Shown here piece by piece: positions 19,442-55,423 of a DNA stretch of 64,000 bases. The number at the start of each line of letters is the position of its first letter. Position 1 is the first letter of the stretch. Source of the stretch: a virus (Duplodnaviria; Heunggongvirae; Uroviricota; Caudoviricetes). Location: the IMG/VR virus record IMGVR_UViG_2925891887_000001. One strand, 5' to 3'. Below the pieces are notes generated by a model. That model had not been told where the DNA came from and made no database searches. It was given only the letters and a program-made list of their open reading frames with translations. The position numbers were made by a program, and so were the translations under genes.

Positions 19442-19568
19442 GGTGATGCTGCCAACTTACTGATTTAGTGTATGATGGTGTTTTTGAGGTGCTCCAGTGG
19501 CTTCTGTTTCTATCAGCTGTCCCTCCTGTTCAGCTACTGACGGGGTGGTGCGTAACGGCAAAAGCACC
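19442..19568 (+). mobile_element. IS1 left-end fragment (127 bp: IRL plus first 24 codons of insA)
   Basis: Exact reverse complement of 55086-55212, the end of the complete IS1 in this window. Starts GGTGATGCTGCCAACTTACTGAT. Similarity stops after AAAGCACC. Confidence 0.95.
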
Positions 19569-19577
19569 ACCTTTTTA

Positions 19578-20678
19578 TCACACTGCGCGGAATGCGATTT
19601 CGCCAGGTATTACTTCACCTTGCCAATACATTTGGGCAGCAACGCGATCTGCGAGGTCACGATAAATAGCCGTAAATTCACTATCTGGACGACTAATAAC
19701 GGTTGGTGTTCCGTTATCCAGATCTTCACGAAGAGAGATATGAAGTGGCATTTGGCCTAACAACTGCGTGTTGTATTTCTCGGCCAGTTTCTGTGCGCCA
19801 CCGGTGCCAAAAATTGGCTCGTGATGACCGCAGTTACTGCAAATATGCACACTCATGTTTTCAACGATACCCAGTACCGGCACTTCGACTTTTTCGAACA
19901 TCACAATGCCTTTCTTCGCATCGATCAGCGCGATGTCTTGCGGCGTAGTTACCACAACCGCACCAGTTACAGGAATGTTCTGCGCCAGCGTCAATTGAAT
20001 ATCACCAGTGCCCGGTGGCATATCGAGAACGAGATAGTCCAGATCAGGCCACAGTGTTTCCTGCAACATCTGCATCAGCGCCTTGCTGGCCATCGGTCCA
20101 CGCCACACCATTGCATTGTCGTCGGTGACCAGATAACCAATAGAGTTGGTTGCCAGGCCATGAGACATGATAGGTGCCATGTGAGTACCGTCCGGTGAGG
20201 TTGGACGTTGGTTTTCCGCGCCCAGCATGGTTGGAATTGATGGACCATAGATATCGGCATCCAAAATACCAACTTTCGCACCTTCAGCAGCCAACGCCAG
20301 TGCCAGGTTTACCGCCGTGGAGGATTTACCCACGCCGCCCTTGCCCGAGCTGACGGCGATAATGTTCTTAACGCCATTAATGCCTGGTTGGTTTTTGACG
20401 CGCTTAAGCGTGGCAATGTTGTACGACAGCTTCCAGTCAATAGCCTTTGCGCCAGTGATACGGAGCAGATCACCACTACATTGCTCTTTCAGGTCTTCAA
20501 AAGGCTTATTCCACACGAAAGGCATGATTAGTTCGACATGCAGTGTGTCATCCATCAACGCAACATGGTGTAACGCTTTAAGCGTAGTCAGGTTGTGTTT
20601 CAGGGTTGGGTGCTGAAAATTAGCCAGCGTACCGGCTACCATTGCTCTCAGGGCATCCGGCGATTTGGACTCGCTCAT
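19578..20678 (-). CDS. mrp: Mrp/ApbC Fe-S cluster carrier ATPase (host chromosomal gene)
   Basis: 366 aa. Deviant Walker [10 protein letters not shown] and CSNCGH motif. Nearly collinear with enterobacterial Mrp/ApbC as I recall it. Divergent from metG, as on the chromosome. Confidence 0.9.
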
Positions 20679-20835
20679 CCCGTCTCCTTTATTTTAATTT
20701 GCGCAATTGTCGCCTTGTAGTGTACTCCAGCTACGACATTTAATCATTTATGAGAAATGCTGTTATCACATGGCAGACATAAGGCCATTTTGTTACTATC
20801 AAGCCCCTTTTCACTACAAAGAAGTAATGCCTACT

Positions 20836-22869
20836 ATGACCCAAGTCGCGAAGAAAATTCTGGTGACGTGCGCGCTGCCGTACGCTAACGGCTCAATCCA
20901 CCTCGGCCATATGCTGGAGCACATCCAGGCTGATGTCTGGGTTCGTTACCAGCGAATGCGCGGCCACGAGGTTAATTTCATCTGTGCCGACGATGCCCAC
21001 GGTACGCCGATCATGCTGAAAGCACAGCAGCTTGGTATCACACCGGAGCAGATGATTGGCGAAATGAGTCAGGAACACCAGACTGATTTCGCAGGCTTTA
21101 ACATCAGCTATGACAACTATCACTCGACGCACAGCGAAGAGAACCGTCAGTTGTCTGAGCTTATCTATACTCGCCTGAAAGAGAACGGTTTTATTAAAAA
21201 CCGTACTATCTCTCAGTTGTACGACCCGGAAAAAGGCATGTTCCTGCCGGATCGTTTTGTGAAAGGCACCTGCCCGAAATGTAAATCCCCGGATCAATAC
21301 GGCGATAACTGCGAAGTCTGCGGCGCGACCTACAGCCCGACTGAATTGATCGAGCCGAAATCGGTGGTTTCTGGTGCTACCCCGGTAATGCGTGATTCTG
21401 AACACTTCTTCTTTGATCTGCCCTCTTTCAGCGAAATGTTGCAGGCATGGACCCGCAGCGGTGCGTTGCAGGAGCAGGTGGCAAATAAAATGCAGGAGTG
21501 GTTTGAATCCGGCCTGCAACAGTGGGATATCTCCCGCGACGCGCCATACTTTGGTTTTGAAATTCCGAACGCGCCGGGCAAATATTTCTACGTCTGGCTG
21601 GACGCACCGATTGGCTACATGGGTTCTTTCAAGAATCTGTGCGACAAGCGCGGCGACAGCGTAAGCTTCGATGAATACTGGAAGAAAGACTCCACCGCCG
21701 AGCTGTACCACTTCATCGGTAAAGATATCGTTTACTTCCACAGCCTGTTCTGGCCTGCCATGCTGGAAGGCAGCAACTTCCGCAAGCCGACCAACCTGTT
21801 TGTTCATGGCTATGTGACGGTGAACGGCGCGAAGATGTCCAAGTCTCGCGGCACCTTTATTAAAGCCAGCACCTGGCTGAATCATTTTGACGCTGACAGC
21901 CTGCGTTACTACTACACTGCGAAACTCTCTTCGCGCATTGATGATATCGATCTCAACCTGGAGGATTTCGTTCAGCGCGTGAATGCCGATATCGTGAACA
22001 AAGTGGTTAACCTGGCGTCCCGTAACGCTGGCTTTATCAATAAGCGTTTTGACGGTGTGCTGGCAAGCGAGCTGGCTGACCCGCAGTTGTACAAAACCTT
22101 CACTGATGCCGCTGAAGTGATTGGTGAAGCGTGGGAAAGCCGCGAATTTGGTAAAGCTATCCGTGAAATCATGGCACTGGCTGACCTGGCTAACCGCTAT
22201 GTCGACGAGCAGGCTCCTTGGGTAGTCGCAAAACAGGAAGGTCGCGATGCTGACCTGCAGGCGATTTGCTCAATGGGCATCAACCTGTTCCGCGTGCTGA
22301 TGACTTACCTGAAACCGGTACTGCCGAAACTGACAGAACGTGCGGAAGCATTCCTGAATACGGAACTGACCTGGGATGGCATCCAGCAACCGCTGCTGGG
22401 CCATAAAGTGAATCCGTTCAAAGCACTGTATAACCGTATCGACATGAAACAGGTGGAAGCATTGGTGGAAGCGTCTAAAGAAGAAGTGAAAGCTACTGCC
22501 GCGCCAGTTACTGGCCCGCTGGCAGACGACCCGATTCAGGAAACCATCACCTTTGACGACTTTGCCAAAGTTGACCTGCGCGTGGCACTGATCGAAAACG
22601 CAGAGTTTGTTGAAGGTTCTGACAAACTGCTGCGCCTGACGCTGGATCTCGGCGGTGAAAAACGCAATGTCTTCTCAGGCATCCGTTCTGCTTATCCAGA
22701 CCCACAGGCACTGATTGGTCGTCACACCATTATGGTGGCTAACCTGGCTCCGCGTAAGATGCGCTTCGGCATCTCCGAAGGTATGGTGATGGCTGCTGGC
22801 CCCGGCGGGAAAGATATCTTCCTGTTAAGCCCGGATGCTGGTGCTAAACCTGGCCACCAGGTTAAGTAA
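20836..22869 (+). CDS. metG: methionyl-tRNA synthetase (host chromosomal gene)
   Basis: [25 protein letters not shown] (HLGH), [17 protein letters not shown] zinc knuckle, KMSKS, C-terminal tRNA-binding domain. The listed start at 20707 is an upstream in-frame extension. Confidence 0.95.
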
Positions 22870-22891
22870 TTAAGCAACCTCTGTTCGCAAT

Positions 22892-22916: not shown

Positions 22917-22952
22917 ATATAGACACAATCCCTCCTGATTTACACAAGCCTT

Positions 22953-23017
22953 AAAACAATTTGTTTTCTACCTTTTGTTGATTGAGATAATAAGCCACAT
23001 AAGAAAACAAATTGTTT
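22953..23017 (+). promoter_or_regulatory. promoter cassette with two operator palindromes
   Basis: AAAACAATTTGTTTT (22953-22967, perfect), extended -10 TGAGATAAT (22983-22991), AAACAAATTGTTT (23005-23017). Confidence 0.6.
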
Positions 23018-24927: not shown

Positions 24928-25673
24928 CCGTAATTCTACGCAGCAGATAGCGCTACAGCGTCCAAATTTCACCACAGACGACTCAACACACTACCAACAA
25001 AAACACACGCTCAAAATCGCTCCCGTTGCGTTACACAACCATATAAACAACTTATTTTCAGGTATAACAAAACAACTAAATAACACACATGCCATTACCC
25101 AAAACAACCAACCTCTTTATGGCAGGCTACCGAAAAGACCCACCTCTTCTCCCCAGGCTACCGGACAACCAACCTAACTTTCACAGGCAATCCGAAAACA
25201 TTCATACGCGCGATACCCACGACACGCCATTACCCAAACAGCGAAGAAACACCAGAATCACTGAAAACCCAACGAAGCCTGTTACCGCAAGGATTCTCTC
25301 AATCCCAAAAGACACGAAACAGAACAATCACGGGAAACGCCATTACCCAATACACGAATAACTACAAAAGCCTTTCACACACTCCAGACAAACAACTCAA
25401 ACACAATAACGAAAGGAATCGCCCACCTGCCATTACTCCATACACGGAGAAGAACAATCACCAAAACGACGAGAACACCCCATAGAAGAACCACCGCAAA
25501 ACGAACGAAACCACATACACCGACAGAGAGAACAACACACCCAATTCACCAACAGAAATAGTCGCCGTATAGAACGTTCTGGAAGGAGTGAGCATTAACG
25601 CCTATAGAGAGGTTGAGACAGATAAAACACAACATGTATAGCGAAGAAGCCAGGTATGTATAAGTGGGGAGGG

Positions 25674-26518: not shown

Positions 26519-26580
26519 GTCGCTATTAACCTCCGGGCAGCGCAACACCGTAACGATATACTTTGTGGCCGTTTTCTTAC

Positions 26581-26617
26581 TGGTATTGTTTACGCAATTT
26601 AGAAAACAACATGTTTA
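26581..26617 (+). promoter_or_regulatory. promoter/operator cassette
   Basis: TGGTATTGT, then AGAAAACAACATGTTTA. The 57-bp unit 26561-26617 is duplicated at 27045-27101. Confidence 0.55.
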
Positions 26618-26628
26618 AGGATTGCTTT

Positions 26629-26958: not shown

Positions 26959-27064
26959 CCCCAACCAAAGCCAGCATTGCTGGCTTAATTTCTCTATAGA
27001 CGCAGGGAAGAACCTGCATATCGCTCATGCGCCTGATCAATATGCTTTGTAGCCGTTTTCTTAC

Positions 27065-27101
27065 TGGTATTATTTACGCCATTGAGAAAACAAGTTGTTT
27101 A
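27065..27101 (+). promoter_or_regulatory. promoter/operator cassette
   Basis: TGGTATTAT, then GAGAAAACAAGTTGTTTA. Confidence 0.55.
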
Positions 27102-27111
27102 CGGAGTTGTA

Positions 27112-38778: not shown

Positions 38779-38787
38779 GGATTTGCC

Positions 38788-39054: not shown

Positions 39055-39056
39055 TC

Positions 39057-39154
39057 GGTCTGGGAGCTTATTTAAAGACCTGCTTCTGTATATATAAATA
39101 ATAAGTAACTTATTAAATATATACGGAAGCAGGCTTCGTAAGACATGCCAGACC
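39057..39154. repeat. large AT-rich imperfect palindrome, copy 2
   Basis: Outer arms GGTCTGG (39057-39063) and CCAGACC (39148-39154). Inner arms CCTGCTTCTGTATATATAAATAATAAGT/ACTTATTAAATATATACGGAAGCAGG. Paralogue of 12500-12596. Confidence 0.85.
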
Positions 39155-39168
39155 TAATTAAACACCCC

Positions 39169-39210
39169 AGAAAACAAGTTGGTTAGCAGATGCAGTAAAC
39201 AAGTTGTTTT
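39169..39210 (+). promoter_or_regulatory. two tandem operator-type sites upstream of the packaging genes
   Basis: AGAAAACAAGTTGGTT (39169-39184) and TAAACAAGTTGTTTT (39196-39210). The hairpin AGAGCGC/GCGCTCT (39211-39230) follows. Confidence 0.5.
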
Positions 39211-39249
39211 AGAGCGCATGGACGCGCTCTGTGTGTTTTAGAGGGATCT

Positions 39250-41138: not shown

Positions 41139-41153
41139 GTAAGTAATTATCTA
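41134..41153. repeat. GTAAGTA-type palindrome (GATAGGTAAGTAATTATCTA)
   Basis: Overlaps the TerL stop, 12 nt upstream of the portal ATG. Confidence 0.7.
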
Positions 41154-41164
41154 AGGTTATTCAA

Positions 41165-42739: not shown

Positions 42740-42760
42740 TAAGTAACAAAAGGAATTTTT

Positions 42761-43648
42761 ATGAATCTGTGGCAAATGCTTTTGGCCCGTCGTGGTCTGA
42801 TGGATGTCGCTGAAGCGCATGAGCGTGGAGGCGCTGGCGGTGTAGCTGCTGATAATGAGCAGAGCACACAAGATCCTGACAAACAGGGTGAACAAAAAGA
42901 GCAGCCGAAGGGCGATGACGAATACGCTGGCATGACTCAGGAAGAGTTACTGGCCGAACTTCGTAAAACCAAGAAAGCTGGTGCTGAACTGCTGAAGGAG
43001 AACATGAAGCGCAAAGAGAAAGAGCGCACATTGGCCGATCAGCTTGCTCAGTACGGTGATATCGACCCGGCGCGTGCTCGCCAGCTTTTAGAAGCTGAAC
43101 AGGCCGCAGAAAATGCACGTCGTGAGGCGGAGCAAGCTGAACTGGAGCGTCGTGGTGAGTTCGATGCTGTTAAAAAACAGATGATCGAAGCACACCAGGC
43201 AGAGCTGGCACAGCGTGACGAACGTTATACAGCACTGGAAAGTGAAAACGCATCACTGAAATCTCAATTAGTCGAGATGACCGTGGGCGCTTCCTTCAGT
43301 AACTCTCTCTTCCTACGTGACAAAGTTCTGATGACCCCGGCAAAAGCCCGCGTGATCTACGGTTCTCATTTTGAAGTGGGTGAAGACGGTAGCGTAGTGG
43401 GTTATGACAAACCGGCAGGTCATAAAGAACGAGCTGTTCTGGTTGACGGTGAAGGTAAGCCGTTGCCGTTTGAATCCGCGATTGAACGCATTGTGCGGGC
43501 AGATCCGGAAGCTGACGCATTGATGCGTAGCGAAGCCAAGCAGGGTGTAGGCTCACATTCCAAATCGACCTACACAATATCCCAACCGAAGAACAAGTCG
43601 ACTATGGATAAGTTGGCCTCCGGTCTGGGGAAAATTGGACTTAAGTAA
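42761..43648 (+). CDS. putative scaffolding protein
   Basis: Lies between the portal and capsid genes. Long E/A/K/R-rich coiled coil. Confidence 0.5.
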   Translation: MNLWQMLLARRGLMDVAEAHERGGAGGVAADNEQSTQDPDKQGEQKEQPKGDDEYAGMTQEELLAELRKTKKAGAELLKENMKRKEKERTLADQLAQYGDIDPARARQLLEAEQAAENARREAEQAELERRGEFDAVKKQMIEAHQAELAQRDERYTALESENASLKSQLVEMTVGASFSNSLFLRDKVLMTPAKARVIYGSHFEVGEDGSVVGYDKPAGHKERAVLVDGEGKPLPFESAIERIVRADPEADALMRSEAKQGVGSHSKSTYTISQPKNKSTMDKLASGLGKIGLK

Positions 43649-43673
43649 CATCTAAATCAAAGGGAATTGATAG

Positions 43674-44549
43674 ATGCCATTACTGCGTGAAGAAGCTGAA
43701 AAGCTGTCTAACAACGAACTTGAACAGGGTGTGATCGAAACTATCATCGATCGCGATGACCTGTTTGCCATCCTGCCTTTTATGAAAATTAATTCAAAGG
43801 CATATCTGTACAACCGTGAAAAAACGCTGAGCGAAGCTACTTTCATTGATGTGAACGACACCATCACCGAAGGTGCAGCAACCTTCGAAGAGAAAGTTGC
43901 GAAGCTGCGCATTCTGGCTGGCGACGTTGACGTCGACAAATTCCTGGCTACCACTATGGCTGATACCAACAACCAGCTGGCTATCCAGGTTCGTCAGAAA
44001 GTCAAAGGTCTGGCTCGTGCCTTCCGTCGCAATCTGATTGTTGGCGACTCCACCACTAACAACAAGGCGTTTGACGGCATTCCACGCCTGATGCACGCAG
44101 ATCAGAAGATCGATATCGCCGGTGCATCTATGACTTTCTCCATGTTCGACGAACTGGTCGATGCGGTGAAAGATCTTGGTGCTGACTGCATCATGATGCG
44201 TTCAGAGCACCTGCGTGCTTACCGTGCGCTGCTGCGTACAGTAAACGTAGGTCCGTCTGAAATCATGATGGAGAACTTCGGTCGTCCGATGCTGTGCCAT
44301 AACGACGTTCCGTTTATCGTAAACGACTTCATTCCGACCGATGCTGGCAAAGCAAGCATCTACTGCCTGCATCTGTCAGAAGAGAACGGCGTTACTGGTC
44401 TGTATGGCGGCGACAACGCAGGTATCGTTGTTGAAAACATTGGTACTGTACAGAACAAAGACGCAGTACGTACCCGTGTGAAGTGGTACTGCTCTCTGGC
44501 GAATAAGCACGATAAGGCTATCGCTGCACTGACCAATGTAAAAATTTAA
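43674..44549 (+). CDS. major capsid protein
   Basis: 291 aa. Position after the scaffold gene, strong codon bias, and a strong terminator follows. Confidence 0.65.
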   Translation: MPLLREEAEKLSNNELEQGVIETIIDRDDLFAILPFMKINSKAYLYNREKTLSEATFIDVNDTITEGAATFEEKVAKLRILAGDVDVDKFLATTMADTNNQLAIQVRQKVKGLARAFRRNLIVGDSTTNNKAFDGIPRLMHADQKIDIAGASMTFSMFDELVDAVKDLGADCIMMRSEHLRAYRALLRTVNVGPSEIMMENFGRPMLCHNDVPFIVNDFIPTDAGKASIYCLHLSEENGVTGLYGGDNAGIVVENIGTVQNKDAVRTRVKWYCSLANKHDKAIAALTNVKI

Positions 44550-44559
44550 TCAGTGTTGT

Positions 44560-44577
44560 AGATAAGTAATTATCTAT
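44560..44577. repeat. GTAAGTA-type palindrome (TAGATAAGTAATTATCTA)
   Basis: Read directly. Confidence 0.8.
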
Positions 44578-44581
44578 GTTT

Positions 44582-44609
44582 AAGGGTGGGCTATACGCCC
44601 ACCCTTTTT
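44582..44609 (+). terminator. intrinsic terminator after the capsid gene
   Basis: AAGGGTGGGC/GCCCACCCTT 10-bp stem plus a T run. Confidence 0.85.
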
Positions 44610-44622
44610 GTAGGAGCAAGAA

Positions 44623-45543
44623 ATGCCAGAACAAAAGATGAAGATTACGGAAGAGGCATTTTCGGATTTTACGGGGCATATGTGCCGCGCCGGATTTACC
44701 AATTCTATCTCCGATGAACCTTTAACCGAGCGGCAACAAAGTCAGCTATCTGCTTGTTTGCAGGCGGTTCCCTTCTCCCAATCCGTAAACATAACTCCGG
44801 CTTCACCATCAGTTTTGGTTGGGAAAACTGTTCAACTTAGTGCAGGTATTAGTATGGGTAAGAGTGCCAGTTCATTTACCTGGAAGTCAGCCAATGATCA
44901 AATTGCAACCGTTAACGGCACTGGATTAGTAACTGGCGTAGCCCCAGGCAAAGTGAAAATTACCGCAACTGATCAGGAAACCCAGCTTTCCGCGTCAGTG
45001 GAAGTCACCGTAAATCCGGTAGCCGTTAAATCCGTAACGGTAACGCCAGACTCAACCTCTGTTGAGAAAGGGAAATCAGTCAGTCTGAAAGCGAATGTTC
45101 AGCCGTCAAATGCGACGAATAAGGCAGTTACCTGGTCTTCCAAAAATGAAGACAAGGCAACGGTAGACCAGAGCGGGAACGTTACTGGTGTAGAAGTTGG
45201 CACTGCGACGATTGAGATCGTTTCCCAAGATGGCAGCAAAAAGGCAACTGCAACGGTGGAAGTAACTGCGCCTGTTGTGGCTGTTACCGGCGTCGAAATC
45301 GACCCAAATAGCACAACCGTTGAGGCAAACAAAACTGTTCAGCTGACCGCAAATGTCGAGCCGGCAGGAGCCACAAATAAAACCGTTACTTGGGAATCCA
45401 AAAATACCGAGTTTGCAACGGTGGACAGCGAAACCGGTGTTGTAACTGGTGTTGCGGCTGGTACTGCCACAATCGAGGTTACTACCCAAGATGGTAGCCA
45501 CAAAGCGACAGCGACCGTAGAGGTCACTGCCGCACAGGAATAA
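44623..45543 (+). CDS. Ig-like (Big_2-type) repeat protein, probable capsid decoration protein
   Basis: Four repeats of the pattern VTVTPxSxSVxxGKTVQLxAxVxPxxATNKxVTWxSxNxxxATVDxxGxVTGVxxGTATI. Confidence 0.7.
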   Translation: MPEQKMKITEEAFSDFTGHMCRAGFTNSISDEPLTERQQSQLSACLQAVPFSQSVNITPASPSVLVGKTVQLSAGISMGKSASSFTWKSANDQIATVNGTGLVTGVAPGKVKITATDQETQLSASVEVTVNPVAVKSVTVTPDSTSVEKGKSVSLKANVQPSNATNKAVTWSSKNEDKATVDQSGNVTGVEVGTATIEIVSQDGSKKATATVEVTAPVVAVTGVEIDPNSTTVEANKTVQLTANVEPAGATNKTVTWESKNTEFATVDSETGVVTGVAAGTATIEVTTQDGSHKATATVEVTAAQE

Positions 45544-45587
45544 CCGATATTGGGCGGCGAAAGCCGCCCAAGAGGAGAGAAAGCGTT

Positions 45588-46022
45588 ATGAAACCAGCAA
45601 AAATTGTTTTATTAGAACCGCAATTTTCCGGTTATTCGGGAATGCTGTGTGGCGTTCAGTTCGAGAACGGGGTATCCGTAGCGGAGTTGCCTTTTATCGA
45701 TCAGCAAAGGATTTGTGCCTCAATGCGAGCATCAACAGTCGAGGGCAAAAATGTTTCTCCGTCTGCCGCATACAGTGATCGTGGCGAGTTGACCGCAGAC
45801 CTGATTACCGAGCCAGCAGCACCTGGCATTGTGCCAATGAAACGTGGGACACCAGATGAACCGGCCAAACAGATCCAGACTTTCACACGAGAAGAGTTGG
45901 AGTCAATTGCAGACAATGAAGGCATTGCCGGTCTACGTGTGATTGGTAATCAGGTTGGTGTCAAAGCGAAAGGAATTGTCGAGATGATTGAAGGCATCCT
46001 GAAAGCACAAGGCGGTGAGTAA
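45588..46022 (+). CDS. hypothetical head-module protein (144 aa)
   Basis: Called by position. The C-terminal REELESIADNEGIAGLRVIGN resembles an HeH/Rho-N-like motif. Confidence 0.45.
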   Translation: MKPAKIVLLEPQFSGYSGMLCGVQFENGVSVAELPFIDQQRICASMRASTVEGKNVSPSAAYSDRGELTADLITEPAAPGIVPMKRGTPDEPAKQIQTFTREELESIADNEGIAGLRVIGNQVGVKAKGIVEMIEGILKAQGGE

Positions 46023-46855
46023 TGGCGCAGATCGACTCGTATCGTAGCGGTGAAGCTGTTTCCCTTTCATTTGCCTTCAACGTGCTGGATATCGAATCTG
46101 CTACCTACACAGTAAAGGACAGCACCGGGGCTATTCTCGTTGATGGCGAGCCGCTAGAAATTACCAGCGGTCAAATGTCGATTCCGGTTGTCGTGTCGGC
46201 TGAATATAACCAGCTCTCTGAGAAAGAGCGAGATCTGCGGTACGTCATTGTGAAGGCTGTTGCATCGGGTCTGACGCATGAAGAGCGGCAAATGTATGTT
46301 CTGCTGAATAGTTTTGAACTGTCGATACCAGAACAGTCGTTTGCAACTGTCGCTGATGCTCAAATGCAGGCGATCGATATGCTGAATGGGGACACTTTGC
46401 TGTCGGATGGTGAAGGCTTAATGCGCAAGCGTCTCATTGAGGCTACCAGACGAATTAAAACTTTACCGTTCTCAATCCGCAAAATTCTACGTATCGACTT
46501 TGACCGATACGATCGCCCTCAAAATATGCTGAATGTGTATGACATTCCGTGGGGAGCAGATGGAGCGTACCGGCATGATTTAGTCGATTGGGAAAAGATG
46601 ACGCAGGAGAAGTTTGAAGAGTTCCCTGACTACTTCAAAGAAGCGTTGATGCTTGCCGTTGTCAACGAAGCGTGTGAGATCGCAAATGGCAATGATGTAG
46701 CCGCAGCACGAGAGGATGGCATTTTGTCAGAGTCCATCGGTGAAACAACCAACATGTACCGTACCGGTAAAGCTGCAAACGTGCATGTGGCTCGTAGTAC
46801 CTGGCGCTTGCTGGTCAGTTACATCAACAACCGTATGATTGTTCGCCGTGCGTAA
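46022..46855 (+). CDS. hypothetical head-tail connector candidate (277 aa)
   Basis: Called by position. TAATG overlap. Confidence 0.4.
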   Translation: MAQIDSYRSGEAVSLSFAFNVLDIESATYTVKDSTGAILVDGEPLEITSGQMSIPVVVSAEYNQLSEKERDLRYVIVKAVASGLTHEERQMYVLLNSFELSIPEQSFATVADAQMQAIDMLNGDTLLSDGEGLMRKRLIEATRRIKTLPFSIRKILRIDFDRYDRPQNMLNVYDIPWGADGAYRHDLVDWEKMTQEKFEEFPDYFKEALMLAVVNEACEIANGNDVAAAREDGILSESIGETTNMYRTGKAANVHVARSTWRLLVSYINNRMIVRRA

Positions 46856-46934
46856 CGCCAGTCGCATTATTTACTTTTGGTCGAAAGGGTTTTTGGCCAG
46901 TAATGAGAGCGACCGACAACAACAGGGAGAGAGC

Positions 46935-47279
46935 ATGAATATTTCATGGCAAACAGAAATTGCGATCTACCGCTTTGGCGCAAAGAACGTTTACGGTGAG
47001 GCGCAATTACAATTCGTCAGGAAGACGAATGTCGGCGTGGTTAAGTTCGAACAGAGTAATGAGAAATCGTCAGTTCGTGCTGATAGCTCTGGTAGTCGTG
47101 GTAAGGCGAGTCTGGAGCTGTTTGATGCTGTGTTAGTAGTCCCTTTAGAAGCGGCTGTACAACTTGATGATGTACTGATCCTTGAAGGTCAAAAATTAAA
47201 GGTGTCCAGTGTTCATCGCCGCTGGGGGCTACGAGGAAGACCTGGGCATCTTGAAGTAGGGGCGAATATATGGGTCTGA
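46935..47279 (+). CDS. putative head-closure/head-tail adaptor protein (114 aa)
   Basis: ATG 46935 follows GGGAGAG. Called by position and size. Confidence 0.4.
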   Translation: MNISWQTEIAIYRFGAKNVYGEAQLQFVRKTNVGVVKFEQSNEKSSVRADSSGSRGKASLELFDAVLVVPLEAAVQLDDVLILEGQKLKVSSVHRRWGLRGRPGHLEVGANIWV

Positions 47280-47743
47280 AATACGATGCGCATCAGTTCA
47301 AACGTGCGGGGAATAGACTCAACAACAGCCAGAAAGCATTTAAGCGATATCTTATTCGGGACATGGAAAAGCTGGCGCGTTTGGTTGAGCGCCTCAGCCG
47401 TGCAATGGCCCCGCTGGAAACCGGATCTCTGGAGACAGCCATCTTTGCCAGGGTGATTAAAGAAGGTTATTCAGGGCTGCGCATTGAGCTTTCTGTGTCT
47501 GGAGCAAAACCACGTCAGGGGCATCCGGGCGTAGAAGTCGGTGACTATGCTAAGTACATGGAGCTGGGTAAATACCGACTCGGTTATCTTTCTCGAATGA
47601 AGAACGTGACAAACCCACCAATTGCCGGTGTTAAACCCCGTGTTGGGCCACACTTTCTGGAAAGAGCGGTGGAAATTAGCGAGAAGCAGTTCTCAGAAGC
47701 GATTCTTGAGGCTGCCAGAAAAGCCGGATTTACGAGAGGTTAA
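47270..47743 (+). CDS. HK97 gp10-like head-tail joining protein
   Basis: MAPLETGSLETAIFARV matches the P-x-x-TG-x-L motif of the gp10 family. Position is consistent. Confidence 0.5.
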   Translation: MGLKYDAHQFKRAGNRLNNSQKAFKRYLIRDMEKLARLVERLSRAMAPLETGSLETAIFARVIKEGYSGLRIELSVSGAKPRQGHPGVEVGDYAKYMELGKYRLGYLSRMKNVTNPPIAGVKPRVGPHFLERAVEISEKQFSEAILEAARKAGFTRG

Positions 47744-47744
47744 T

Positions 47745-48128
47745 GTGTTTATTGAAGCGTTTGCAAGTTTGATGCAGAAGGCAAAGATTGGCACGGTCGG
47801 GACTGACATTTTCTGTCACTACTTGCCTGCCAATGTGAAATCTGGCGTCCTGCTTATTAACCCAAATACCGGTATCAGCATCGATCATGAGCTACAGGGC
47901 TTTTACCACGAATCATTCACAATAATTGTGCGTGGTTCGTCAATTACTACGACGGTTGAGAAAGCCAATAAAATCATTGAGATGTTTCCAGTAGAGGAAA
48001 CGGAATCTGGTGGTGTTTATTTTCGACTGGTACGACCGATGGCGATGCCAATCATTTATCCCAAAAATGATGGGGCATTAATAGAAGCAGGCATTCCTAT
48101 TGAATTTGCTGGCTATTTATTGAATTAA
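47745..48128 (+). CDS. putative tail terminator/tail completion protein (127 aa)
   Basis: GTG 47745 follows GAGAGG, directly after the upstream stop. Last gene before the major tail protein. Confidence 0.4.
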   Translation: MFIEAFASLMQKAKIGTVGTDIFCHYLPANVKSGVLLINPNTGISIDHELQGFYHESFTIIVRGSSITTTVEKANKIIEMFPVEETESGGVYFRLVRPMAMPIIYPKNDGALIEAGIPIEFAGYLLN

Positions 48129-48136
48129 CTCAATTG

Positions 48137-48152
48137 GTAAGTATATACTTAC
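48137..48152. repeat. GTAAGTA-type palindrome (GTAAGTATATACTTAC, perfect 16 bp)
   Basis: Read directly. Confidence 0.9.
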
Positions 48153-48202
48153 TATTAGCGCAATGAATGCGTAGAATTAACGGAAAAAGGAGTTTTCCAT
48201 CA

Positions 48203-48949
48203 ATGTCTAATACCCATGTAAAAAACATCAAACTTGGTGCCTGTAAGGTGTCGTTTGGTGGTGTGGATTTGGGTTACACCAAAGGTGGTGTTCAGGTTGA
48301 AATCGCAACCGAAACGCTGAAAGTGACCGTAGACCAGCTGGGCCAGACCACGATCTCCGAGCTGATCCAGGGCCGCAACATCACCATTACTGCGCCGCTG
48401 GCTGAATCCGTGTTGAAAAACATGGTCGATCTGATGCCAGGTTCCACGCTGAGTTCTGGCGAAGATACCGTAACCATCACGTCTGCGCAGGGAGTGAACC
48501 TGATCGACGTTGCGAAAGAGTTGGTGCTGACCCCGCAGGATGCGACGGATTATGTTCTGACCATCCCTAAAGCAGCAACCGCGGGTAACTTCACCATGAC
48601 CTACCAGTCTGACGACGTTCGCGTGTTCTCAGTTGAGTTTTCCGCTTACCCGGACGACGCTGGCGTGTTGGGGAAAATGAGCCTCCCAAAGCCGGTTGAG
48701 AGCGTCACGCTGACCCCGTCTTCACCGACCGTAAAAGTGGGCACTAAAGTTCAATTGAGCGCAACCTTCACCCCGGCCGATGCAACCAATAAGACTGGCG
48801 TGTGGAGCTCTGATGCGACTGATAAAGCGACCGTAGATCAGAACGGACTGGTAACTGGTAAAGCTGTCGGTTCAGCCAATATCACCTTCACAACTAATGA
48901 CGGTGCCAAGAAGGCGACCAAAGCCGTCTCTGTAACTGCCGCAAGCTAA
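48203..48949 (+). CDS. major tail protein with a C-terminal Ig-like (Big_2) domain
   Basis: ATG 48203 follows AAAGGAG. The C-terminal VTLTPSSPTVKVGTKVQLSATFTPADATNKTGVWSSD...ATVDQNGLVTGKAVGSANI is an Ig-like domain, as in lambda gpV. Lies upstream of G/GT. Confidence 0.75.
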   Translation: MSNTHVKNIKLGACKVSFGGVDLGYTKGGVQVEIATETLKVTVDQLGQTTISELIQGRNITITAPLAESVLKNMVDLMPGSTLSSGEDTVTITSAQGVNLIDVAKELVLTPQDATDYVLTIPKAATAGNFTMTYQSDDVRVFSVEFSAYPDDAGVLGKMSLPKPVESVTLTPSSPTVKVGTKVQLSATFTPADATNKTGVWSSDATDKATVDQNGLVTGKAVGSANITFTTNDGAKKATKAVSVTAAS

Positions 48950-49011
48950 ATTGTGATAACCCAAGAGGCCCATGGATGGGCCTCTGTATGAGTTTAAAAG
49001 GATTTTAACCA

Positions 49012-49329
49012 ATGACCAAATTACTCGATCTCGATTCCATTCTGCCTCCGAAGAAAAGCATCAAATTTGGCGGTCAGGAATATCCCATCGTTGAAATGAC
49101 GGTAGGTCTGTTCGTTTCCATCAAGCAGATGGAAGGCAAAGATCTCATGAACATGTCTCCTGTTGAGCAAGTGACAGCTTATGCAGATCTGGTTCGTAAG
49201 GTTATCCCTTCAGTACCTGACGAAGTTCTTGAAAAACTGACTGTTCCGCAACTCCAGCAGATCTTCACCTTCGCTATGGAAGTGATTGATGAAGAAAACG
49301 AAAAAGCGGCTGGCGAAGGGGCAAAGTAA
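49012..49329 (+). CDS. tail assembly chaperone (gpG-like)
   Basis: 105 aa, between the major tail and tape measure genes. Confidence 0.7.
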   Translation: MTKLLDLDSILPPKKSIKFGGQEYPIVEMTVGLFVSIKQMEGKDLMNMSPVEQVTAYADLVRKVIPSVPDEVLEKLTVPQLQQIFTFAMEVIDEENEKAAGEGAK

Positions 49330-49679
49330 TTTCCCGCGATGAATCCGGGACAAGGACCGTCTCAATAGATCTCGGATTCTATTTCAGTCGTGTAGTTGCT
49401 CACTACGCCGTGTCGCCATTAGAGCTACTGAACGTTCCTCTCACGATGTTCTGGATGCTCAGTCGCAATATAGACCGTCTGCGTGCGGAAGAGGATGTCC
49501 GCAACTTACAAGTCGCTCGTGCGTCCCAGGCGGATGGCGAGGCTGTGAAGGCGTTCATGGAGGGTTTGCAACTCAGGATTGGAAGACCAGTCGTAACAGA
49601 TAAAGTCTACGATCCAAGCCAGGATAAGGCAGACCCTGACGCCAAAGAGCAACTGATGCAAATATTTGGCAGAGGATGA
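49012..49679 (+). CDS. tail assembly chaperone G-T fusion via programmed -1 frameshift
   Basis: The -1 frame is open from 49293 to 49679 and overlaps the end of G. Candidate slip sites are GAAAAAG (49300-49306) and CAAAG just before the TAA (49322-49329). Confidence 0.55.
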
Positions 49680-49686
49680 CAAGGGA

Positions 49687-52600
49687 ATGTCACAAAACGT
49701 AGAGTTTATCCTGTCGCTGGAAGACAAACAGTTTACAGCGTCAATCGATCGTGCGGGGAAACTGCTTACTCGATTTGGTGAGCAGGTAACAAAGCCTGCT
49801 CAAAAAATCCAAACCTTTGAACGCTCTTTGGGTTCGGTCGCCCGTATCATTGGCGTTCTGGAAAGCAAGCTCGATTCTACGGCAGATAAACTACAGGATG
49901 TAGCTGCCGGTTTTGAGCTTGCTTCAGATGCTACGCGTAAAATGCGTGGCAACATCACCAGCCTCAATTCTGGTCTTAAAGCCCTGATTGAGCGCGTCGA
50001 TACGACAACTTCTTCAGTAGATAAACTCACCGCGTCATTACGTAAAGTGCAATCAGAGCTAAATGATTTCTCTGATTGGGCGACCTATGCAAGCAAAAGC
50101 GCAAGCCGCTTTGGTACGGAGGTCAAAGAAGCCTCTGCGTCCGTGAGTGGCATGAATACGCGCCTTAATACCACGACGAAGCGACTCAGTAATTGGGGTG
50201 TCTCAACGAGTCAGGCTGCCGAGGGACTGAAAAAGGTTCGTGAGCAGATGGACGAAGTTATCGGACGTCAGCAACTGATTAGCAAGCCGGTACGCGTTCG
50301 TACATCTGGAGGTAGCGATGGTGGCAGCGGGCGGCGTAGCGGCTCTGGCCATAGCGGTAAAAGTAACGAAGGAGGTATGTTCTCTGGCCTTCGTGGCAAC
50401 ATTTTCCTGCTTGGCGAGATCGGAGATGCAGCCAGAACGGTTACTGACATCATGTTTGGGTGGCAGAAGCCTATTGTTGAAGCTGCGGCCGAAATGGAAC
50501 GTATGCGGGTGATGCTTCGAGGGTTGAATAAGGAGAAGTCCAACCCGGGCCAGGCTGCCGCTGATGATATGAAGTACATCGTAGACATGGCTCAAAATGC
50601 GCCGTTCGCGATGCAGGCGTTAACAGACTCCTTCGTGAAGTTTCGTTCTGCTGGCTTAGATCCAACCGATGGTTCTCTGAAGGCGCTGGTGGACTCCGTT
50701 GCTCGTTTTGGTGGTGATAGTGAGCTGTTGAAACGTGCGGCTGTGGCCGTTCAGCAGATGTCCGGTAAGGGCGTTGTGTCAATGGAAGAGCTACGTCAGC
50801 AATTAGGTGAAGCCGTTCCTAACGCGATGCAGGCAATGGCAGACGCCGCAGGCATCACTATGGGGGAACTGACTAAAGCCGTTGCCAGCGGTACGGTTGA
50901 GGCAAAACAGGCGTTGTCTCTGATGTTTGTTGGTCTGCGTGCGGAGAATGAGAACGCAGCGAAAGACATGATGCAAACCTACACAGGTGCGCTGGCGCAA
51001 CTTCAGACGTCATTCACGTTATTTGCTGATCGGGTTGGTCAGGCCGGATATCTGGATTCTCTATCGAAGGGGATGAAAGAACTGGCTTCAATCATGAATA
51101 GCGCCGAAGGGATTTCGTTTGCCAATTCTTTAGGTTCGGGGTTAACAACGGCAATCGATGGGTTGCGTCAGCTTGCTCAATGGTTAGCAAAGAACCAAGA
51201 GCTGGTAATTAATCTCGGTAAGGTCGTGGCCGCGATGGTTGCGTTCAAACTGATGCGAGCAGGGATCATGGGGGTAGTTGGCGCTGGGAGCCAGATGGTT
51301 AGCACCTTTGCCACGATGGCGACCGCCATACAGACTCCATTTAACCTCGGCGCTACAGCAGTAACTCGATTCAATCGTGCGGCACGTATGGGGCTGGCTC
51401 CGATCCCCTCTCTTATTTTCGCCATCCGTGGGGCGATTACGGGGCTTAAAGGCGCTTTTGCTGGATTAACGGCGTTCATTGCAGCAAACCCTATAGGGGC
51501 AGCATTTACAGTTGCCACAGTAGCTGTTGCTGGCCTAATCACGTACATGACCATGCTCCGCAGCGAAACTTCAAAGGTCGTTGACGAGATTAGGAAAATA
51601 CCAGAGGCGATGACGGCGGCCAAACGTGCACAGATGGCGGAGTATAAAGCGCGTCTTGAGCAACAAATCACGCAAAAGGAACAAGAGTTAAAATCTGGCG
51701 AAAAGGTGGTTTATGGGCCGGGTATGGCCGGAACTACAGTAAAGATTAATCAGGATGAACGTAAGCGTATAGAAAATGAGCTAAATGACCTTCGTGAGAA
51801 ACGCGATAAAACTACTGGGGCAATTGAACGCGGAGACACTGCTGTAGCCAAACGTCTTGCAAAAGATGCGGCAGAATCACAGATAGAGAAAATACGGGAA
51901 GAGAATAGAGACTTTGCGGCAACATTCGCTAAAGCTCGTCAAGAGGCTCTGGATAAGATCCAGAAAATCAATGATGACGGTTCACTTTCAGATGACGAAA
52001 AGAACAAGCTATTGGCACCGTTACGTGAAACGGTAAACAAAAGCTATCTGGAGCCTGCGCAAAAACTGGTTGATTCACTTTCTTCTCGTAAGAATGCGAC
52101 CGAGAAGCAAATTGCGACTCTTAATGATCAGCTTGAAAAAGCCAAAAAGGATGGAAATACCGAGCAGATCCAGAAACTGCAAGGCAGTATTCGTGGTTAT
52201 CAGGAGCATTTGGAAGCCGTTGCTCAGGAGCTGACTCAGGCAGAGTTCGAGAGAGATAACGCGGCCAAAACTGGTAAGGGCGTAATGTCAAACCAGGGGA
52301 CTGTTCTTGGGTTAGGTACAACTGATAAAGCTGCTCAGAAGGCGCTGGCGCAATATATGCGAAACCAGATGGATTCTGCGACTTATCAGCGTACTTTGCC
52401 TGACGGCACTCCGATGATGGACTTCGAAGGTAAGCCGATTATTGGGCCTAAACAACTCAAGACGCAGCTTAATTTGCAGAAAGCATCCAGCGCCAGCTCT
52501 CTGGAGAAAATGAGCGATGAAGAGCGTGCCGCAGCCATTGCTGCACTGACTAAAGCTCGTGAACAGGATGCCGCAGCCGCCGAGAAAGCAGCCCAACGAT

Positions 52601-54261
52601 CAGCTAACGCCTCGCAGCGTGCGGCCAAGAAGGAACAGGCAGCGCAACAGAAACTGGCAGCCGGATACCAGAAGGCTCTGGACAAAGCCGATCAGCTTAT
52701 GGGGCAAATGGGTGAAAGCTCTAAGGCTACGGTATCGTTTGATCAGTCTCTTCGCGATACAACGAAATCGCTGACAGATTTGGCTAATGCGGTTCCTAAC
52801 GAGTTCATCACTCAAGAGATGATCGACAAGGCGAAAAAACGTCTTGAAGACCTCAAAAATGCGACACCTGAATATCGCGAGATGTTTAATCGCCGCAATG
52901 TTGAGCAGATGATCTCCACCTGGGCACCGGAGGCGGATTCCATTATTAGTGCTGGCTATACGCCGTCTCGCGAAGAGAAAGTTGCTGATTTCGAAGACAC
53001 CTACAACCGCAATCTCAAAGCGTTGATAGAACTTCGTGATAAGGCGTCTGATCCTAAAGTTGTGGCGCTTTATACAAAGAAAATCAATCAACTGATTGCT
53101 GCTGGCAATACCGCGCTTATTAAAGAGACGGGGACTGCGACGCAGAAGTTGGCACTGGAATACGAAAACCTGGCAGAGCAGATCGAAAGCACCTGGACTG
53201 ATTTGTTTAGTGGCTTAACTGATGTCCTGACTGATTTCGTTATTAACGGGAAGATGAGCTTCTCCAGCCTATCTCAGTCCATTTTGAAAGATATCACCAA
53301 TATGGTCGTGAAGTCGCAAATCACGCTGCCTCTAATGAACATGTTGGGGATGGGAACCACCGCAGCTGGTAGTTCACAGAGTGGCAATTTGCTCACTGGA
53401 GTTGCTTCTGCCGTTGCCAATCAAGGTGTACGAATGGGCAACACTGTTAATGGCGACAAGTCGGTAGGAGAAGCCACGAAGGAGACGTCCAGTTCGGTAA
53501 CTGGATTGGGGCAAACAACACAGCAGACCACCAGCGCAATTGGCACAGCAACAAATGCGATTGGTAGCTGGGTATCGGGGCTATTTGATAGCACCGAAGC
53601 CAAAGATGCTGAGACAAAAGCAGTGAAGGACTCCATCTTCTCGATGCAGAACCTCAGCTCTGTTACCGGCGCTCTGTCTGCCGCGTTTGCAATGCTTGGA
53701 GCTAATGCTTCCGGCTCTGGTAATAAGTGGTTGAATTTCGGCGCGACAGTTGCATCTGGTTTGGTTTCAGTATGGGCTGGTGGTGGATTCGATGGATTGA
53801 TGTCCGGTTCTTCTGGCTCAACTTCCGGGTTCAACAATCTGACCAGTTCTGCTGCCGATGGCACGAATGGTATTCCTGCAATTCCGAAGTTTGCAAATGG
53901 TGGCATATTCGGAAAAGACGGCGTGATCCCGCTCCGGGCATACCAGAAAGGCGGTATCGCCAACTCACCTCAATTGGCGTTGTTTGGGGAAGGCGATATG
54001 AATGAGGCGTATGTTCCATTGCCTGATGGCCGAACAATCCCTGTAACGCTCAGTACCGATGGTATGAGTGGAGGCGGAAATGTTCTTTCTCCTGTATCAA
54101 TTGAGATCAACGTCCATAGTGACGGTAGCACGACAGAATCCGGCGATACAGAAAGCATATGGAACAATGCCGCTCAACGGATGAAAGCAATCGCGCTTGA
54201 GACTATCGCTCAAGAGAAACGCCCTGGCGGATCACTCAACCCAAACACTCAACGTAACTAA
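49687..54261 (+). CDS. tail tape measure protein
   Basis: About 1524 aa with long helical regions, hydrophobic central segments and a Gly-rich C-terminal part. Position is canonical. Confidence 0.9.
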   Translation: MSQNVEFILSLEDKQFTASIDRAGKLLTRFGEQVTKPAQKIQTFERSLGSVARIIGVLESKLDSTADKLQDVAAGFELASDATRKMRGNITSLNSGLKALIERVDTTTSSVDKLTASLRKVQSELNDFSDWATYASKSASRFGTEVKEASASVSGMNTRLNTTTKRLSNWGVSTSQAAEGLKKVREQMDEVIGRQQLISKPVRVRTSGGSDGGSGRRSGSGHSGKSNEGGMFSGLRGNIFLLGEIGDAARTVTDIMFGWQKPIVEAAAEMERMRVMLRGLNKEKSNPGQAAADDMKYIVDMAQNAPFAMQALTDSFVKFRSAGLDPTDGSLKALVDSVARFGGDSELLKRAAVAVQQMSGKGVVSMEELRQQLGEAVPNAMQAMADAAGITMGELTKAVASGTVEAKQALSLMFVGLRAENENAAKDMMQTYTGALAQLQTSFTLFADRVGQAGYLDSLSKGMKELASIMNSAEGISFANSLGSGLTTAIDGLRQLAQWLAKNQELVINLGKVVAAMVAFKLMRAGIMGVVGAGSQMVSTFATMATAIQTPFNLGATAVTRFNRAARMGLAPIPSLIFAIRGAITGLKGAFAGLTAFIAANPIGAAFTVATVAVAGLITYMTMLRSETSKVVDEIRKIPEAMTAAKRAQMAEYKARLEQQITQKEQELKSGEKVVYGPGMAGTTVKINQDERKRIENELNDLREKRDKTTGAIERGDTAVAKRLAKDAAESQIEKIREENRDFAATFAKARQEALDKIQKINDDGSLSDDEKNKLLAPLRETVNKSYLEPAQKLVDSLSSRKNATEKQIATLNDQLEKAKKDGNTEQIQKLQGSIRGYQEHLEAVAQELTQAEFERDNAAKTGKGVMSNQGTVLGLGTTDKAAQKALAQYMRNQMDSATYQRTLPDGTPMMDFEGKPIIGPKQLKTQLNLQKASSASSLEKMSDEERAAAIAALTKAREQDAAAAEKAAQRSANASQRAAKKEQAAQQKLAAGYQKALDKADQLMGQMGESSKATVSFDQSLRDTTKSLTDLANAVPNEFITQEMIDKAKKRLEDLKNATPEYREMFNRRNVEQMISTWAPEADSIISAGYTPSREEKVADFEDTYNRNLKALIELRDKASDPKVVALYTKKINQLIAAGNTALIKETGTATQKLALEYENLAEQIESTWTDLFSGLTDVLTDFVINGKMSFSSLSQSILKDITNMVVKSQITLPLMNMLGMGTTAAGSSQSGNLLTGVASAVANQGVRMGNTVNGDKSVGEATKETSSSVTGLGQTTQQTTSAIGTATNAIGSWVSGLFDSTEAKDAETKAVKDSIFSMQNLSSVTGALSAAFAMLGANASGSGNKWLNFGATVASGLVSVWAGGGFDGLMSGSSGSTSGFNNLTSSAADGTNGIPAIPKFANGGIFGKDGVIPLRAYQKGGIANSPQLALFGEGDMNEAYVPLPDGRTIPVTLSTDGMSGGGNVLSPVSIEINVHSDGSTTESGDTESIWNNAAQRMKAIALETIAQEKRPGGSLNPNTQRN

Positions 54262-54459
54262 CTATCGACTGCCCCGACCGGGGCAGTCTCACAAGGATGT
54301 GAGATGGAAAGACAAACGTTTAATTGGTATCCAGATTACGAATCTGAAAAGAGCGTAAAACCGAATGTAACGGTACTTAATTTTGGTGATGACTACGAGC
54401 AGCGACAGGCTCAAGGTCTTAATCGTATTAAAGAAGAATGGTCGGGTAATGACTCCAAC

Positions 54460-54963
54460 TTATTGATAGTGTTTTATGTTCAGATAATGCCCGATGACTT
54501 TGTCATGCAGCTCCACCGATTTTGAGAACGACAGCGACTTCCGTCCCAGCCGTGCCAGGTGCTGCCTCAGATTCAGGTTATGCCGCTCAATTCGCTGCGT
54601 ATATCGCTTGCTGATTACGTGCAGCTTTCCCTTCAGGCGGGATTCATACAGCGGCCAGCCATCCGTCATCCATATCACCACGTCAAAGGGTGACAGCAGG
54701 CTCATAAGACGCCCCAGCGTCGCCATAGTGCGTTCACCGAATACGTGCGCAACAACCGTCTTCCGGAGCCTGTCATACGCGTAAAACAGCCAGCGCTGGC
54801 GCGATTTAGCCCCGACATAGCCCCACTGTTCGTCCATTTCCGCGCAGACGATGACGTCACTGCCCGGCTGTATGCGCGAGGTTACCGACTGCGGCCTGAG
54901 TTTTTTAAGTGACGTAAAATCGTGTTGAGGCCAACGCCCATAATGCGGGCAGTTGCCCGGCAT
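54460..54963 (-). CDS. insB: IS1 InsB' (expressed as InsAB' by a -1 frameshift)
   Basis: 167-aa ORF overlapping the insA end. The A6C slippery run (TTTTTT on the plus strand near 54903) lies in the overlap. Confidence 0.9.
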
Positions 54964-55157
54964 CCAACGCCATTCATGGCCATATCAATGATTTTCTGGT
55001 GCGTACCGGGTTGAGAAGCGGTGTAAGTGAACTGCAGTTGCCATGTTTTACGGCAGTGAGAGCAGAGATAGCGCTGATGTCCGGCGGTGCTTTTGCCGTT
55101 ACGCACCACCCCGTCAGTAGCTGAACAGGAGGGACAGCTGATAGAAACAGAAGCCAC
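54882..55157 (-). CDS. insA: IS1 InsA
   Basis: [40 protein letters not shown]..., 91 aa. Confidence 0.95.
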
Positions 55158-55423
55158 TGGAGCACCTCAAAAACACCATCATACACTAAATCAGTAAGTT
55201 GGCAGCATCACCGAATGGTCGTTAACCTTTACCAGATCATACAACGAAATTAATGCAATCGATGACTTCCTGACTGAGCGAGCAGGCGTTGAGTCGTTCT
55301 ATTGGGTTAATCCAAGAGGAAAACGGATTGTAGTTGTATGTGACAGTCATACGGTCAAGCGATATCAGGGGTACTGTGTCTTAACTGCTACATTCAGACA
55401 AGTATTTGAGGCTTAAGTATCTG

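Follow-up and report, generated by a model that had tools for sequence, protein, structure and literature searches.

Does the inverted repeat of IS1 sequence in this viral DNA, whose two arms lie 35.5 kb apart, mean that the segment between them can invert, that the assembly contains a false join, or simply that IS1 has been there twice? In the window (the whole stretch of DNA that was analysed, 64,000 nucleotides), positions 19442-19568 are the exact reverse complement of 55086-55212 by direct reading. The 127-bp exact repeat of the original prediction is thus real, and a repeat search of the whole 64-kb window finds it as the single inverted pair, with arms 19440-19571 and 55083-55214 (132 nt each, 99% complementary, 35,511 nt apart). 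The exact match given by BLAST is slightly longer, 129 nt (19440-19568), of which the two additional bases (TC/GA) reflect a chance identity of the flanks; the arms diverge from position 19569, where the left arm has an A and IS1 has a G. Chance cannot be the origin of an exact match of 127 nt within 64 kb.

The right arm belongs to a complete IS1 of the IS1A type (54445-55212, minus strand, 768 bp), of which it forms the insA end, while a script comparison shows that 19442-19568 equals the first 127 nt of this element once the latter is reverse-complemented. The mention of "IS1 homology" in the prediction is therefore correct inasmuch as the right arm is part of a complete IS1, but the full element and the 127-bp remnant had not been told apart. 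PGAP annotates the full copy as [quoted passage not shown]. Its termini are GGTGATGCTGCCAACTTACTGAT and GGTAATGACTCCAACTTATTGAT, with IRL at 55190-55212 and IRR at 54445-54467, and both its length and its imperfect terminal inverted repeats of about 23 bp fit IS1. It contains insA (54882-55157, 91 aa) and the insB frame (54460-54963, 167 aa), with the A6C motif (AAAAAAC) for the -1 frameshift at IS1 nt 307 (about 54900-54906 of the window), and it is 99-99.7% identical at the nucleotide level to the IS1 of P1, SfIV and others. The same 9-bp sequence, GAATGGTCG, is present as a direct duplication on both sides of the element (54436-54444 and 55213-55221), which agrees with the 8-9 bp that IS1 duplicates.

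The full IS1 lies within the gene of a minor tail protein M, a broken gene to which the prediction made no reference. The 5' part (54304-54444, plus strand, 47 codons, a pseudogene according to PGAP) is cut by IS1, and the 3' part (55222-55416, plus strand) was located from the annotation and by removing IS1 in silico. This removal restores a gpM of 111 aa which is identical to CYRAN_16 of phage Cyrano and which matches Pfam PF05939 with E = 5e-35 over positions 1-108 of the 108 of the model. Given what gpM does in lambda and the polar effect that IS1 classically exerts, gpM is probably lost, the insertion is probably polar on the tail-tip genes L-K-I-J, and the element probably persists as a plasmid yet makes no infectious tails. 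An IS1 in gene M was found in one of 5,426 complete E. coli genomes, and the open reading frame across the IS1::M junction has no exact match in a gene-position collection of 153 billion positions.

The left arm (19442-19568, plus strand) is an IS1 remnant, nt 1-127 of the element, annotated by PGAP as "IS1 family transposase, incomplete". IRL (19442-19464) is still there, as is the start of insA, whose first 24 codons run from the GTG at 19497, but insB and IRR are missing. Autonomous transposition takes both terminal repeats and a transposase gene; this 127-bp stub is immobile. Alignments with Cyrano and the plasmid pNT1F31 place a microhomology, GCACC, at the deletion junction (19564-19568): these five bases are common to IS1 nt 123-127 and to the ancestral terminator, GGTGGTGCAATGCACCACC-TTTTT, that lies beyond apbC. 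The junction has created a hybrid hairpin followed by a T-run (19542-19576; -17.5 kcal/mol, z = -3.25 by folding), in which IS1 nt 101-110 pair with the remaining half of the terminator, GCACCACC(UU), around a loop of 12 nt, before TTTTT. This hybrid is the replacement of the ancestral terminator beyond apbC; the terminator pattern scan accepts loops of up to 8 nt only, so that the hairpin is not in its list.

The stub, in the same context and with identical flanks, is present in 7 of the 5,426 complete E. coli genomes, which amounts to six other plasmids, and the carriers come from human, swine, chicken and giant panda. In the gene-position collection, the open reading frame at the stub junction occurs only in CP022167 and in one similar contig. 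To the left of the stub, the relatives diverge: pNT1F31 departs from the window at 19373, and pCPF6 shares its sequence up to 19438 and then continues with a fragment that resembles IS5/IS903 (the family label is our own reading of an open reading frame). Among the relatives examined, of which these two are the closest, none carries a complete IS1 at 19442 or the site as it was before the insertion.

We propose that the inverted repeat is, very probably, a side effect of IS1 having acted twice, independently and at different times, in a phage-plasmid of the SSU5 group. In the older event, an IS1 would have inserted at 19441/19442, just downstream of a promoter-like repeat. A deletion would then have joined IS1 nt 127 to the apbC terminator through the 5-bp GCACC microhomology, removing IS1 nt 128-768 and the intervening DNA, where relatives hold a gene for an S24/HumD-type peptidase, and the resulting stub would have been passed down in a small sub-lineage. 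That the carriers have the stub and the junction sequence in common is observed; that the insertion preceded the deletion, we infer. The second event, more recent, brought a complete IS1A into codon 47-48 of the gpM-type gene, and the 9-bp duplication shows that this was a simple insertion. The full IS1 is opposite in orientation to the stub, and therefore the first 127 nt form an inverted repeat over 35.5 kb. Judged by its distribution (7 genomes versus 1), the stub is the older of the two pieces. Both are already annotated in RefSeq.

The alignments with relatives bear on whether the DNA between the arms (19569-55085, 35.5 kb) is in its original orientation. The window differs by a single base, at 57092, from p22AR0322A, an SSU5-group phage-plasmid of E. 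coli 22AR0322 whose record is circular (109,442 bp) and has, by annotation, ParB-family genes that suit plasmid maintenance. The sister plasmid pCR-0543_1, an independent assembly in which gene M is unbroken, is collinear with the window through both junctions, at about 100% identity; over 16783-63974 of the window the identity is 99.997-100%, and the sole differences are IS1 here and ISEc12 there. SSU5 itself aligns in the same orientation, nt 1-15377 with window 39116-54441 and nt 15384-20351 with 55225-60191, so that it is collinear across the right-hand junction; the aligned module, 20.4 kb of packaging, head and tail genes with 79-80% identity, places the window in the SSU5 group. Since the sister with intact M is collinear across both junctions and SSU5 across the right one, these comparisons show the gene order of the window to be the un-inverted, ancestral order.

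These observations weigh on the warning of the prediction that an assembler could have made a false join here, and on the related idea of a past inversion at the IS1 homology, either of which would mean that the 35.5 kb truly, or ancestrally, has the opposite order to the one given. Repeats are generic sites of misassembly, and the full IS1 has many chromosomal copies, with a median of 11 IS1-containing places per complete E. coli genome. However, the 9-bp duplication is direct, and gene M is in register on either side of IS1 and becomes intact once the element is removed, while an inversion or a misjoin would have parted its two halves. The sister plasmid, which lacks the second IS1 copy, is collinear, and so is SSU5; the six other plasmids have identical flanks around the stub, and a stub of 127 bp is short enough for ordinary read pairs to span. 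We consider a false join or a past inversion most improbable, and other findings in the window need no discount for misassembly.

Intramolecular transposition of IS1 is known to produce inversions as well as deletions next to the element, and the pair could in theory result from such a replicative event, in which the element is duplicated in inverted orientation and the DNA between the copies is inverted. Such an event would leave both copies full-length and would divide the target duplication between them, as inverted 9-mers. Instead, the full copy is flanked by a direct duplication of its own, the other copy is the older 127-bp stub, its flanks, CTGGCGCTC and ACCTTTTTA, differ from GAATGGTCG, and the genes stand in un-inverted order. 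There is next to no chance that the repeat arose in this manner.

The prediction also doubted the junction with host DNA. The region concerned is a chromosome-like cargo block of this phage-plasmid family (19582-22870), with apbC at 19578-20678 on the minus strand and metG at 20836-22869 on the plus strand. The block is found in at least 173 plasmid records and four phage records, and it shares just 88.75% identity with the E. coli chromosome; between chromosomal and plasmid apbC, the identity is 85-89%. Moreover, in Cyrano and pNT1F31, two relatives without the IS1 stub, it stops at the same terminator. By these comparisons, apbC-metG is conserved cargo and not a host junction, and its boundary can be trusted, like the gene order.

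Another scenario would have IS1 itself capture apbC-metG, by cointegration and imprecise excision, the stub then being a recent phage-host junction. The stub does adjoin the apbC end of a chromosome-like block, and in several E. coli chromosomes an IS1 with the same relative orientation lies a short way downstream of apbC. The block is nonetheless present, with its boundary, in the relatives that lack the stub; its divergence from the chromosome and the confinement of the stub to seven genomes also argue against capture, which is highly improbable. The chromosomal IS1 copies near apbC were considered as a source of the junction and rejected: they are full copies, next to an apbC that is 85-89% identical, and they lie at varying distances from it, hence they are independent insertions.

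That the repeats could mediate inversion, as the prediction suggested, is granted in principle only, on the grounds that 127 identical bases are a substrate for homologous recombination. A rare RecA-dependent inversion of 19569-55085 is possible. It is likely that recombination between the 768-bp IS1 and chromosomal IS1 copies is more frequent than this inversion. The predicted inverted junction (end of apbC, stub, 3' part of gene M) was found in none of the 5,426 complete E. coli genomes, and only one of them has both arms. The annotation confirms what the prediction said of the interval, which holds apbC-metG, accessory genes, packaging genes, and head and tail genes up to the tape measure gene.

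It may also be asked whether 19442-55212 is a 35.8-kb compound IS1 transposon, or a functional invertible switch of the late operon, which is very unlikely. The stub has an intact IRL, the full copy could supply the transposase, and the interval is bracketed by outward-facing, inverted IRLs at 19442 and 55212. A compound transposon would have a common target duplication, but the two flanks differ, CTGGCGCTC and GAATGGTCG, and the unit is collinear with the relatives, so it has never moved as a block. As for a switch, programmed inversion of the Gin/Cin/Hin or shufflon type takes its own site-specific recombinase and short inverted sites; none of the 52 annotated features of the interval is a recombinase or an invertase, the repeats are IS1 sequence, and the configuration occurs in a single isolate, so it is not a selected system. 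It is just as doubtful that the 35.8-kb block, with apbC-metG, the packaging genes and most of the structural genes, is flipped or mobilised at all, either by the IS1 transposase acting on the two outward-facing IRLs or by RecA acting on the 127-bp homology. If it were, the population would be mixed and the late operon reversibly rearranged.

The two independent IS1 events therefore remain our preferred reading, and the value of the finding is mainly one of quality control. It is a further case of insertion sequences eroding a phage-plasmid, and nothing new in kind. The main biological consequence is a prophage that is probably tail-defective: in one clinical isolate, an SSU5-like phage-plasmid has probably been reduced to a plasmid-only element by a single IS1 hop into a gpM-type gene. 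We found no description of apbC-metG or of the present IS1 configuration in papers on SSU5-type phage-plasmids.

The natural IS1 copy of P1 is similar to the full copy described here: it has 768 bp, insA and insB, the A6C -1 frameshift and a 9-bp duplication, and it resides inside a phage-plasmid. In P1, IS1 occupies a non-essential region, whereas the present copy breaks a tail gene of an essential type, and its partner is just a stub of 127 bp. In E. coli chromosomes and in long-term evolution lines, homologous recombination between IS copies in inverted orientation produces large inversions. The geometry of the substrate is the same as here, an identical IS sequence in inverted orientation; the homology, however, is 127 bp instead of a full IS, and the inverted product is not observed. 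With respect to lambda gpM (PF05939), the restored open reading frame covers the whole family model and is placed, as in lambda, between the tape measure gene and gpL, but the present gene, unlike that of lambda, is split at residue 47 by IS1. Last, the module is collinear within the SSU5 group (SSU5, pHCM2, pECOH89 and the Escherichia phages Cyrano and CMS-2020a), at about 80% identity to SSU5 and 97-99% to Cyrano. The present plasmid stands apart from the other members by the IS1 in its gene M, and its small sub-lineage has the IS1 stub where the others have the S24-peptidase gene. According to the legend of Fig. S9 in a 2025 preprint (10.1101/2025.09.12.675607), close SSU5-group phage-plasmids may differ solely by the gain or loss of insertion sequences.

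The inverted identity between 19442-19568 and 55086-55212 is borne out by reading both arms and by a repeat scan of the whole window, in which the single long inverted repeat has arms of 132 nt (19440-19571 and 55083-55214) that are 99% complementary and 35,511 nt apart. A script comparison also gave 19442-19568 as the first 127 nt of the reverse complement of 54445-55212; the exact match is 129 rather than 127 nt in BLAST because two flanking bases match by accident. The repeat is far above chance expectation, and the arms are identical because IS1A copies are nearly invariant.

The right arm covers the insA end of a complete IS1 (54445-55212, 768 bp), which has two imperfect terminal repeats, insA (91 aa), an insB frame and, at nt 307, the frameshift motif AAAAAAC; the IS1 of P1, SfIV and other phages are 99-99.7% identical to it. 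A direct 9-bp target duplication, GAATGGTCG, lies on either side of the element (54436-54444 and 55213-55221). When IS1 and one duplication copy are removed in silico, a 111-aa ORF re-forms, whose product is identical to the 'Minor tail protein M' of the related phage Cyrano and is covered end to end by Pfam PF05939 (E = 5e-35). The duplication and the restored ORF therefore establish that IS1 entered a gpM-type gene (gene M) by simple insertion, after codon 47; the neighbours of this gene are the tape measure gene (49666-54261) and the gpL gene (55466-56197, PF05100 match). The PGAP annotation of the near-identical E. coli plasmid p22AR0322A already has this IS1 and both pseudogene halves.

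The left arm consists of IS1 nt 1-127 only, that is, the left terminal repeat and 24 insA codons, a dead stub that is common to several plasmids and is labelled 'incomplete IS1 family transposase' by PGAP in p22AR0322A. On its right side the sequence reads ACCTTTTTATCAC, followed by the 3' end of apbC. Relatives devoid of the stub have a terminator hairpin at the position of this junction; beyond apbC it is GGTGGTGCAATGCACCACC-TTTTT in pNT1F31 and GGCGGTGCATTGCACCGCC-TTTTT in Cyrano. Since IS1 nt 123-127 are GCACC, the junction falls within a 5-bp microhomology, the signature of an illegitimate deletion of IS1 nt 128-768 and adjoining DNA. We infer that IS1 would have inserted first, and that the microhomology deletion would have followed. 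IS1 nt 103-110 (GGTGGTGC) pair with the kept half of the terminator, so that a hairpin and T-run are still present 3' of apbC; this pairing is a coincidence, and the hybrid hairpin folds at -17.5 kcal/mol (z = -3.25).

The left neighbour of the stub is a 15-codon ORF, MSSISEAHMFAAGAR (19400-19447), just downstream of one copy of the promoter-like repeat D1 (19331-19387); the IS1 end supplies the TGA stop of this ORF. The counterpart in the related plasmid pCPF6 also has 15 codons, with its own TAG stop, and is followed by an insertion-sequence fragment, which we take to be IS5/IS903-like from our reading of its ORF. This spot looks like a site of recurrent insertion-sequence rearrangement.

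The two IS1 sequences differ in distribution. Only one record, NZ_CP195468.1, has a 100% match to the tail region including IS1; it is p22AR0322A itself (109,442 bp, circular, E. coli 22AR0322, New Zealand) and aligns to the window in reverse complement with one mismatch, at 57092. Among 5,426 complete E. coli genomes, the host of p22AR0322A is the only one with IS1 in gene M, so this insertion is recent and confined to this isolate. Seven genomes (from humans, swine, chicken and giant panda) share the stub with identical flanks, hence the stub is inherited and older. Base 57092 is C in the window and in the sister plasmid pCR-0543_1, and T in NZ_CP195468.1; it falls in a gene that PGAP names 'tail assembly protein' and that has different protein accessions in the two plasmid records. 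Record versions or sequencing may account for the mismatch.

The 35.5 kb between the repeats are neither inverted nor falsely joined, as four agreeing lines of evidence show. First, the halves of gene M are in register across IS1, with the direct duplication on both sides, which shows that the two sides of the full IS1 adjoined each other until it inserted; any exchange through this copy would have parted them. Second, pCR-0543_1 (strain 205, Houston), an independent assembly in which gene M is intact and the stub is the sole IS1 sequence, is collinear with 16783-63974 at 99.997-100% identity; over these about 47 kb, the only structural differences are the IS1 in gene M here and an ISEc12 there. 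Third, the related SSU5 genome is collinear across the insertion, its nt 1-15377 and 15384-20351 corresponding to 39116-54441 and 55225-60191, both in the same orientation. Last, six other plasmids reproduce the flanks of the stub. Ordinary read pairs could, moreover, bridge a repeat of 127 bp that has unique flanks. The gene order shown is the ancestral one, and it can be relied on, as can the cargo boundary. The ISEc12 (IS21 family) of pCR-0543_1 lies at its nt 37814-40396, corresponding to about 25384-25388 of the window, which is without it.

Other origins of the pair were considered. Intramolecular replicative transposition predicts two full copies and a split inverted target duplication, neither of which was found. 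A compound transposon is rejected, as the two ends of the unit share no flanking duplication and the unit is collinear with relatives, and so is a programmed invertible segment, as the annotation of the interval lists no recombinase and only one isolate has the configuration.

Doubt had also been cast on the host-DNA junction. The chromosome-like block (19582-22870, apbC stop to metG stop) is in fact long-standing cargo, and not a junction with the chromosome of this host. In DNA it shares 88.75% identity with an E. coli chromosome; MetG nevertheless has 99.3% identity with the E. coli protein (ApbC, 94%), so nearly all differences are synonymous, and this second, full-length methionyl-tRNA synthetase gene appears to be under strong purifying selection. 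At least 173 plasmid and 4 phage records of the phage-plasmid family contain the block at 96-99% identity, and so do 62-kb E. albertii plasmids; its terminator boundary is unchanged in relatives without the stub. The unchanged boundary, the family-wide presence and the divergence from the chromosome rule out IS1 as the carrier of apbC-metG. In several E. coli chromosomes a full IS1 lies just downstream of the chromosomal apbC, in the yeh fimbrial region. The distances from apbC vary, which suggests independent events, and these copies are unrelated to the stub junction. In the one chromosome inspected (E. coli 23AR1101, 4105-4873 of the segment examined), IS1 has the same orientation relative to apbC as the plasmid stub. 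Coincidence or a hot spot of insertion probably accounts for these chromosomal copies.

Other repeats were noted. The 9-mer AGAAAACAA occurs in 14978-39169 in 11 copies on the plus strand and 5 on the minus strand (about 0.24 expected per strand), for example in 19331-19387, 22954-23010, 26556-26621 and 27040-27105. It forms the end of the D1 and D2 promoter-like repeats (57-66 nt), and in D1 an upstream TTGTTTTCT pairs with it, so that the two form an operator-like inverted repeat. Copies lie 5' of many accessory-gene cassettes and flank apbC-metG on both sides; the 9-mer probably serves the early or accessory region as a common regulatory element. A 57-nt AT-rich near-palindrome, CCTGCTTC-TGTATATATAAATAA...TATATACGGAAGCAGG, has two copies 26.5 kb apart (12518-12574 and 39079-39135), the second at the start of the deposited linear SSU5 genome (SSU5 nt 1 is 39116). 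It might be a packaging site, a replication site or a terminator.

Regarding consequences, the assembly of the lambda tail tip needs gpM, and by analogy its loss very probably stops functional tail assembly, so that a tail defect is probable in this copy of the phage. Polarity in either orientation is classical for IS1, hence expression of L-K-I-J would also be affected. A phage-plasmid without functional tails would be maintained solely as a plasmid. By way of the 127 bp, RecA could invert 19569-55085; this length exceeds the minimal processing segment, which is a few tens of bp. Such an inversion would disrupt no further genes; the full copy and the stub would exchange positions, and the tail-tip genes would be cut off from the rest of the late operon. 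Recombination between the 768-bp IS1 and a chromosomal IS1 should be more efficient than this inversion; the median number of IS1-containing places per genome is 11.

IS1A, IS1 remnants and SSU5-group phage-plasmids are all of known kinds, and the features described here are already annotated in RefSeq. According to a 2025 preprint (10.1101/2025.09.12.675607), close SSU5-group phage-plasmids can differ solely by the gain or loss of insertion sequences, and p22AR0322A and pCR-0543_1 differ from each other in exactly this way.
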